From IMG/VR virus record IMGVR_UViG_2541047960_000005: a stretch of 43,137 nt of DNA. One strand, given 5' to 3'. Below, piece by piece: positions 23,343 through 23,462 of the stretch; positions within the stretch are counted from its first letter, which is position 1; each line of letters begins with the position of its first letter. This stretch comes from a virus. Lineage: Duplodnaviria; Heunggongvirae; Uroviricota; Caudoviricetes. Both the position numbers and the translations under genes were made by a program. Under the pieces are notes generated by a model. It was not told the origin of the DNA. It did no database searches and saw only the letters and a list, made by a program, of their open reading frames with translations.

Positions 23343-23462
23343 GTTAACATGTTAACTGGCTGCCCGGGCATTTTTGCGGTTTTTATCTTTATTATTCAGT
23401 TTGTTGTGCGAAAAAAATGTTAACTGGCTTTTTCAGAAAATGTTAACCAGGCAGCAGTTAAC
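23343..23462. repeat. array of five GTTAAC-core sites, including an 18-bp perfect palindrome, upstream of the terminase small subunit
   Basis: CAGTTAACATGTTAACTG (23341-23358), ATGTTAACTGG (23417-23427), ATGTTAACCAGG (23439-23450), CAGTTAACAT (23455-23464); consensus ATGTTAAC(T/C)(G/A)G in both orientations. Confidence 0.5.

Follow-up and report, generated by a model that had tools for sequence, protein, structure and literature searches.

The window analyzed here, a stretch of 43,137 nucleotides of viral DNA (IMG/VR record IMGVR_UViG_2541047960_000005), is an E. coli lambdoid prophage whose region 22600-24200 is 92-98% identical to Stx-converting phages such as BP-4795, 2851, 1717 and YYZ-2008. 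Genes in this part of the prophage come in the order lysozyme, Rz/Rz1, TonB_C lipoprotein (22167-22508), a YlcI/DUF3950 ribbon-helix-helix (RHH) gene (22650-22901, minus strand), an HNH endonuclease gene (22883-23248, plus strand), a gap, terS (23539-24102, plus strand), terL (24099-25760, plus strand) and a prohead protease/major capsid fusion. The gap had originally been put at 290 bp, which is exactly the distance between the HNH stop at 23248 and the terS GTG at 23539.

The proteins encoded on either side of the gap have different affinities. The HNH product matches Pfam HNH PF01844 (E=4.8e-7) and PHROG 589 HNH, and no separate DNA-binding domain was detected in this 121-aa protein, its Pfam and PHROG family matches being of the HNH type only. 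An HNH gene is a packaging accessory typical of HK97-type cos phages, and in the window it lies directly upstream of cos as gp74 does in HK97. The large terminase subunit is of the HK97 type (Pfam TerL_ATPase and TerL_nuclease) and aligns over 461 aa with HK97 gp2 at 23% identity (E=2e-11). An HNH gene adjoining cos and an HK97-like TerL, both features of HK97-type cos systems, are thus present, and TerL and HNH are presumed to be the cutters at cosN. The 187-aa TerS, on the other hand, has no sequence similarity to HK97 gp1, for which there is no Pfam family. It matches Pfam Terminase_2 PF03592 (E=1.3e-8) over aa 2-57 only, as well as PHROG 641, and its N-terminus (aa 1-56) is an SF6/SPP1-type helix-turn-helix (HTH) with PDB profile matches to 4ZC3, 3ZQP and 2CMP. 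An AlphaFold2 model has a pLDDT >92 for aa 1-50 and places helices at 4-14, 19-25, 33-41 and 44-56 within the confident first 56 residues. When compared by Foldseek with the SF6 TerS DNA-binding domain 4ZC3, this model gave a TM score of 0.84 and an rmsd of 1.6 Å. The terS start reads GTG-CTG-ACA, is preceded by GGGAGGAGG and lies at +230 from the packaged left end defined below. In some records (for example MT225100.1 185-793, protein P0001) the terS start is annotated 45 nt upstream of the MLT residues, giving 202 rather than 187 aa; such upstream-extended N-termini look like annotation errors since every homologue starts with MLT.

An array of five sites in the HNH-terS gap

The gap contains five ATGTTAAC cores within 23343-23464, with the region 23340-23466 reading GCAGTTAACATGTTAACTGG ... 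AAAATGTTAACTGGC ... AAAATGTTAACCAGGCAGCAGTTAACATTT. Three cores are on the plus strand (23349, 23417 and 23440) and two on the minus strand (23343-23350 and 23457-23464). The original prediction described five copies in both orientations of the 11-mer ATGTTAAC(T/C)(G/A)G. The five cores are real, but the longer consensus fits only the three plus-strand sites, as the two minus-strand copies read ATGTTAACTGC. The predicted 18-bp perfect palindrome was recovered as CAGTTAACATGTTAACTG at 23341-23358, where it forms a proximal double site with site 1a on the minus strand and site 1b on the plus strand. Next comes a spacer (23359-23416, plus strand) holding T5 tracts at 23371-75 and 23381-85, which agrees with the T-rich separators noted at the outset, as well as TTT at 23389-91 and A7 at 23410-16. 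The three distal ATGTTAAC copies are site 2 (23417-23424, plus), site 3 (23440-23447, plus) and site 4 (23457-23464, minus). Counted from the left end, the GTTAAC hexamers start at +34 and +42 in the palindrome and at +110, +133 and +148 in the distal sites, so that the array spans +34 to +155 with spacings of 8, 68, 23 and 15 bp. Phased T tracts that are invariant among relatives suggest that the spacer is probably intrinsically bent.

Relative to expectation, the ATGTTAAC 8-mer is strongly overrepresented in the whole window (7 copies versus 1.13 expected, with none of 100 shuffles reaching 7). The bare hexamer GTTAAC shows mild enrichment only (13 versus 7.7 expected). The array is therefore far beyond chance in its clustering and its extended 8-mer, not in the bare GTTAAC count. 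There are also signs of local duplication, namely GCAGTTAACAT...TTTGCGG present twice and 16 nt common to sites 1b and 2. Because part of the array resembles the product of local duplication, its repetition alone could be historical. A 24-codon open reading frame (MLTGCPGIFAVFIFIIQFVVRKKC; 23349-23423) begins in the palindrome, where terS started ancestrally, and ends within site 2. The frame remains open in the divergent locus L071 but is short in the contig L263 and stopped after four codons in satellites (all three described below), a distribution that suggests a probable relic left by the displacement of the terS start.

The array lies inside the predicted packaged left end

The position of the packaged end can be read from the close relative Lys8385Vzw. 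[quoted passage not shown] Its GenBank record ends in ...GGACACCGCCCCCCCT and starts with CTCACGCAGAGAAAAAATTCCCGTTTCAGGGCAGTTAACATGTTAAC..., the first base corresponding to window position 23310, and comparison by eye of its first 240 left-end bases with the window gave 3 mismatches. By homology, the window is predicted to have the 10-nt 3' cohesive end CGCGCCCCCT at 23300-23309 (plus strand), which differs from that of Lys8385Vzw by one base, with left-end +1 at 23310. Since the cos end was mapped in this near-identical phage, the array can be placed inside the packaged left end between cosN and terS; that is, it lies on the terS side of the nick, beside cosN, within the end predicted from Lys8385Vzw to be packaged first.

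Two further elements accompany the array. A cosN core (GGACACCGCGCCCCCT|CTCACGCAGAGAAAAAATTCCCGTTTC; 23294-23336, plus strand) hardly varies among about 20 genera of Enterobacterales, whichever TerS subfamily they have, or in satellites. On the right-end side of cos, a G8 run (23257-23264, plus strand) 45 nt before the nick is present in all relatives as well as in satellites. The run could be where the TerL/HNH pair shared with HK97 acts, or where packaging terminates. A G run of at least 8 is also found in HK97 (L006 683-692), 42 nt before the right end, despite the unrelated TerS. In PPompW prophages (L002 1546-3004) the IS110-family element ISEc20 abuts exactly at the cos G run (window position ~23261), and the upstream lysis genes and HNH are missing, so that this cos is left without its right-end side. 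Among 5426 complete E. coli genomes, 1287 contain this cos type, and its matches in phage records are for the most part phages that convert their hosts to Stx1 or Stx2 production.

Site cores are conserved within variable flanks

We next assessed conservation in 42 distinct sequences of the long type, which like the window have terS starting outside the array. These were picked by their TerS protein and not by the motif, so as to avoid circularity. Between +1 and terS, 1 of 38 core columns varies as compared with 94 of 191 other columns (Fisher p = 9e-9), and the difference holds within the array itself (1/38 versus 44/88; p = 4e-8). Site 2 is invariant in this sample, and the single varying core column falls in site 3, which is nevertheless retained in satellites. 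Both T5 tracts of the spacer are also invariant and the bases between the T tracts vary. This is evidence that the cores are under purifying selection, as would be expected of a functional site.

Spacing is conserved along with the cores, with the 8/68/23-24/15 bp arrangement retained in relatives that are ~63-68% identical over the aligned region. Thus, the motif conservation in relatives that had been suggested as a check on the array is borne out for both cores and layout. One diverged phage with this layout is L071, whose TerS is 64-65% identical to that of the window. It has a 22-bp perfect palindrome (GGTGGTTAACATGTTAACCACC) and different flanks, and its six sites are spaced at 8, 68, 24, 10 and 15 bp, which is the window layout plus one extra site. 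The 68 bp between sites 1b and 2 recurs in L071 and in satellites, and is 67 bp in a locus with a TGTACA core described below.

Satellite islands carry cosN and the array without terminase genes

The module is also present outside of phages. E. coli CH427 contains an island of ~9.5 kb between cspD/yljB and clpS (L072 7962-17340, corresponding to NZ_CM166357.1 639961-649340) with genes for an integrase, an HTH regulator, an RHH protein annotated as YlcI/YnfO, an Icd-like protein, a RepA helicase and a prohead protease/capsid fusion. It terminates in the G run, cosN and all five GTTAAC sites at window spacing. No TerS, TerL, HNH or window-type YlcI homologue was found by tblastn in this island or in two mosaic relatives (L119 and L191). 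The relatives of the CH427 island are mosaic, and what they have in common is mainly the cos-proximal end. This satellite-type version of the array occurs in 50 of 5426 complete E. coli genomes.

Homology between phage and satellites starts at cosN and breaks off immediately beyond the last of the GTTAAC sites (match to query 71-246), making site 4 the final conserved element of the module. Satellites are ~63% identical over the aligned region, retain the array, and have no gene downstream of it. Because islands that would depend on the terminase of another element have kept exactly this segment, the result points, indirectly, to the module being a cis-acting packaging signal rather than a terS control region. 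The CH427-type island looks like an undescribed PICI-type satellite of the window's phage family, its helpers being putative.

Short-type relatives have the double site at the terS start

Relatives were also collected more widely by TerS protein, taking one genome per species plus viral contigs. Short-type relatives come from ~20 Enterobacterales genera, have a TerS 40-49% identical to that of the window, and share a block of ~100 bp that runs from the G run through GGACACCGCGCCCCCT to CTCACGCACAGAAAAAATTCCCCTCTGGAGGGTGTAAAC-ATG-TTA-ACA-GCG-CAG, in which ATG is the terS start and the hexamers lie at +34 and +42. Most Enterobacterales relatives thus have a single GT(A/T)AAC-ATGTTAAC double site into which both the start codon and the ribosome-binding site of terS extend. 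Given the shared block and the presence of hexamers at +34/+42 in both types, the window palindrome is the orthologue of this terS-start double site. Salmonella phage FSL SP-016 is the sole isolated short-type phage, and a search for experimentally mapped ends in such phages came upon it alone; its genome is partial and its record ends are not at cos.

In the window lineage the Shine-Dalgarno sequence before the ancestral ATG is gone, there are ~183 extra bp with three more sites, and the terS start has moved to GTG-CTG-ACA. The second codon is informative in this regard. All short-type terS genes use the rare leucine codon TTA, which lies inside the site, and all long-type genes use CTG, their start being outside the array. 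As the long-type genes use CTG, the TTA codon is held by the DNA site and not by the protein.

At most short-type loci a third GT(A/C/T)AAC copy is found beyond the nick, 15-22 nt before GGACACC (for example L001 2520-2527). It is ~67 bp from the start-codon site, an arrangement that recalls pacL/pacR of SPP1, and its window counterpart is degenerate (GTAAAAAAC at 23276-23284).

The core sequence switches together with TerS

Several loci keep the architecture and change the core. In the 300 bp upstream of terS, the contig IMGVR_UViG_2816332609_000004 (L263/L274) has the long-type cos architecture with the core ATGTACAT. The palindrome CCTATGTACATGTACATAGG, perfect over 20 bp, lies at +32/+38 and is followed by 67 bp of AT-rich spacer, with another two ATGTACAT copies at +105 and +127. 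An exact-pattern scan of viral contigs for further members of this TGTACA class recovered only the same contig. At locus L070, ATGTTTAC and GTAAACAT (GTAAAC/GTTTAC) take the place of window sites 3 and 4, so that the TGTACA and GTAAAC classes are each represented by one contig. A 'KK' subfamily of TerS proteins, with the N-terminus MLTTKKKK or MALTTKKK, is accompanied by AAAAGTTACAC once or twice from +33/+34, with the core GTTACAC, and is carried by a Hafnia phage and by satellite-like islands that have their own TerS and no TerL or HNH nearby. The islands of this own-TerS kind (L243-L246 and L277-L280; proteins P0055, P0064, P0078 and P0099) have a D5 primase or SSB, small open reading frames, a capsid-like gene and the same cosN core. 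In these islands the satellite's own TerS may redirect packaging, with TerL and HNH shared with the helper.

Overall, the cosN core is the same across both TerS subfamilies, and it is the motif from +33 onward that tracks the TerS type. We also compared the motif with TerS residue 32, which precedes the putative recognition helix (helix positions taken from the AlphaFold model). This residue is Thr in four lineages with TTAAC left half-sites and Ser in three of four lineages with TAAAC. The correlation is suggestive only, as it covers ~8 lineages, has the exception L018/L271 and ignores kinship, and as TerS differences between the classes are modest.

A similar palindrome, (C/T)TTAACATGTTAAC(T), is present in 3-5 copies in unrelated AT-rich phages on metagenomic IMG/VR contigs (L116, L118, L121, L123 and L173). 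In L118 a C-rich run (CCCCCTCCCCCC) follows the palindrome copies and the array is ~220 bp upstream of a Terminase_6C large-terminase gene. This type combines the same core with a different packaging system, by convergence or chance.

Discussion

The array can be compared with three known packaging systems, the first of which is lambda. Lambda cosB has the order R3-I1-R2-R1 and is bound by gpNu1 (lambda cos is described in PMC6092414; the remainder is general background on lambda). As in lambda cosB, several candidate TerS sites of mixed orientation lie between cosN and terS, inside the left end, with DNA between proximal and distal sites that is bent in lambda and predicted to be bent in the window. 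The window also resembles lambdoid phages in that the nicking site is conserved and the adjoining recognition sites differ with TerS. However, the window TerS belongs to Terminase_2 and not to the Nu1 family, the motif is unrelated, and the predicted ends have 10-nt 3' overhangs and an HNH partner (ends from Lys8385Vzw) rather than 12-nt 5' overhangs. A search of 23249-23538 for the IHF consensus WATCAANNNNTTR with up to one mismatch found none. With a Terminase_2 TerS and no IHF site in the gap, membership in the lambda-type cosB class was rejected.

HK97 provides the second comparison. Its TerS recognizes one 15-bp A-tract site at +15 to +29, with DNA threaded through the ring (Chechik et al. 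2024, PMC11331095). The window shares with HK97 the gene order HNH-cos-terS-terL, a homologous TerL, a 10-nt 3' overhang (that of the window by homology to Lys8385Vzw), a G run 42-45 nt before the nick, and TerS recognition predicted downstream of the cut, inside the left end. In contrast to HK97, its TerS is unrelated and there are five putative HTH-type sites over 120 bp from +34 instead of a single site. A gp1-like TerS using a single +15 to +29 site was likewise rejected, as there is no gp1 similarity and the repeated motif begins at +34.

The third system, SPP1, is the one with which TerS itself agrees. SPP1 G1P binds repeated boxes that flank the cut site and overlap the start of its own gene (PMC6316719). 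In fold and in Pfam family, the DNA-binding domain of the window TerS agrees with that of SPP1/SF6, and the array resembles their pac (pacL-pacC-pacR) in its repeated boxes and in the bent DNA expected between them. The layout of the short-type relatives is also reminiscent of pac, with sites that extend over the start codon and ribosome-binding site of terS and another GTAAAC copy beyond the cut. SPP1 differs in being a headful pac phage of Bacillus with imprecise cutting, whereas defined cohesive ends and an HNH partner belong to the window system. Headful packaging therefore does not describe the window, given the defined cohesive ends of its relative Lys8385Vzw and the HNH partner.

Satellites of other phages show parallels to the islands described here. 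EcCICFT073 and SaPIbov5 carry the cos of their helper, and many SaPIs carry their own TerS. In the same manner, the terminase-less islands carry cosN with the full GTTAAC array, and the other islands have a TerS of their own along with another motif in the corresponding place. The cos of EcCICFT073 is of the lambda type with a divergent cosB (PMC6092414). The CH427-type islands differ from it in having a cos with the GTTAAC array, and for these the helpers are predicted ones.

From these comparisons, the array is functionally a probable cosB, one that lies outside the known lambda and HK97 types and whose TerS groups with SPP1/SF6 G1P. The original prediction of a terminase recognition region that is 'cosB/pac-like' is thus supported in its cosB-like part, by position, conserved cores, satellites and covariation with TerS; the pac part falls away because this is a cos system. 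Our preferred explanation, which we regard as likely, is that the array is the cosB-like half of cos and that its five ATGTTAAC copies are sites for the HTH domains of an oligomeric TerS, the assignment of TerS as the binder of the GTTAAC sites being one that we infer from sequence comparison. According to this model, TerS would bind the palindromic double site beside cosN along with the three distal sites. The T-tract spacer of ~60 bp would bend the DNA such that both clusters of sites contact one TerS assembly, bending and wrapping both being conjectural. TerL and HNH would thereby be positioned for the staggered cuts that leave the 10-nt 3' overhang at 23300-23309, with the division of labor between them also conjectural. 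The terminase would then be held on the left end, and packaging would proceed rightwards through terS. The spacings of 8, 68, 23 and 15 bp do not suit a simple regular wrap. In addition, a conserved A-tract at +10 to +20 occupies the position of the HK97 TerS site and could be the primary TerS contact instead.

A second reading, which we hold tentatively and consider possible but less likely, treats the region from +33 onward as a fast-evolving specificity module over which HK97-type helpers and their satellites compete, and it takes in the uncoupling of the terS start, the swapped cores, and the copied or private motifs of islands. An ancestral TerS site overlapping the terS start would, as in SPP1, have tied recognition for packaging to the expression of terS. 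In the Stx-phage lineage this link would subsequently have been broken when the start shifted 183 bp downstream and the site grew into a five-site array. Related lineages would have exchanged the core (TGTACA, GTAAAC or GTTACAC) along with residues at the TerS recognition helix. Finally, satellites that lack TerS would copy the helper array, and others would supply a TerS with a private motif and have cosN, TerL and HNH in common with the helper.

Regulation is one alternative, given where the sites lie in short-type relatives. The sites might serve mainly to control terS or late genes, as an operator for TerS autorepression or as a structured 5' leader, and be dispensable for packaging. In SPP1, pac overlaps both the start of gene 1 and its ribosome-binding site, and the terminase acts through pac to repress its own synthesis (PMC6316719); the short-type double site overlaps the same two elements of terS. 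The inverted repeats of the window can also fold as RNA (MFE z = -1.8). However, this folding score is unremarkable, with 12 of 200 shuffles folding equally well, and no Rfam family matched the gap. Neither a plus-strand sigma-70-like promoter nor a terminator was found in 23150-23650, the sole promoter-like match being on the minus strand and built from the motif. The window array is also at least 75 bp upstream of the terS start, and satellites keep it without a downstream gene. We therefore consider it unlikely that regulation is the main role of the array, although in the short type, by analogy to SPP1, the sites may well serve terS autoregulation in addition.

Equally improbable in our view is binding of the sites by a factor other than TerS, such as a host nucleoid protein, TerL or HNH. 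Lambda cosB requires the host protein IHF, and TerL and HNH must also act nearby. Binding by a conserved host protein does not fit with a core that switches between GTTAAC, TGTACA, GTAAAC and GTTACAC among close relatives in the same host family, and the gap has no IHF consensus. With regard to HNH, the 121-aa protein matches HNH-type families only. Furthermore, the cosN core does not change between the two TerS subfamilies, in contrast to the motif from +33 onward, which differs with the subfamily.

Two remaining explanations are very improbable. The array might be a functionless relic, produced by local duplication of the ancestral terS start (ATG-TTA-AC) once the start had moved downstream, since the motif is made up of the ancestral start codon and the five bases after it, and array segments look duplicated. 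Yet the cores are invariant where half of the neighboring columns vary, the sites are in both orientations, the same architecture occurs with TGTACA, a core that is not a start codon, and satellites hold the array at ~63% identity over the aligned region.

Least probable of all is the option in the original prediction that the array is the operator of the neighboring RHH protein (YlcI/DUF3950), which would regulate itself or late genes. RHH proteins bind short repeats, the ylcI gene is nearby and one array-bearing satellite has a gene annotated as YlcI/YnfO, but the region upstream of ylcI is contained in the HNH gene, ~440 bp away from the array, and lacks GTTAAC, and tblastn finds no homologue of the window YlcI in array-bearing satellites. 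The satellite 'YlcI' itself has no similarity to that of the window detectable by tblastn, and its promoter region lacks ATGTTAAC. In K-12, the RHH region of the DLP12 YlcI is almost identical, yet the neighboring cos is of the lambda type and GTTAAC is absent from the gap between ylcI and nohD, and FSL SP-016 has no YlcI-annotated gene in the examined stretch upstream of HNH. As a separate observation, near-identical YlcI proteins are encoded close upstream of cos in both DLP12 (L273 3252-3446, lambda-type) and the window (HK97-type), a pattern unrelated to the array.

The preferred reading of the array as a cosB-like TerS site describes a recognition element of an ordinary kind, though one not previously described, in the literature searched, for the very common Stx-phage family; that literature held no description of the GTTAAC sites of the window family, nor any binding, footprint or packaging assay of this TerS. 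The array would provide a defined substrate for an SF6-type TerS that works with an HK97-type TerL and HNH, and its natural variants GTTAAC, TGTACA, GTAAAC and GTTACAC would allow TerS-DNA recognition to be dissected. Knowledge of cos also helps to fix genome start coordinates in this phage group. Finally, knowing the cis packaging signal would help to explain which satellites and plasmids window-type phages can mobilize.
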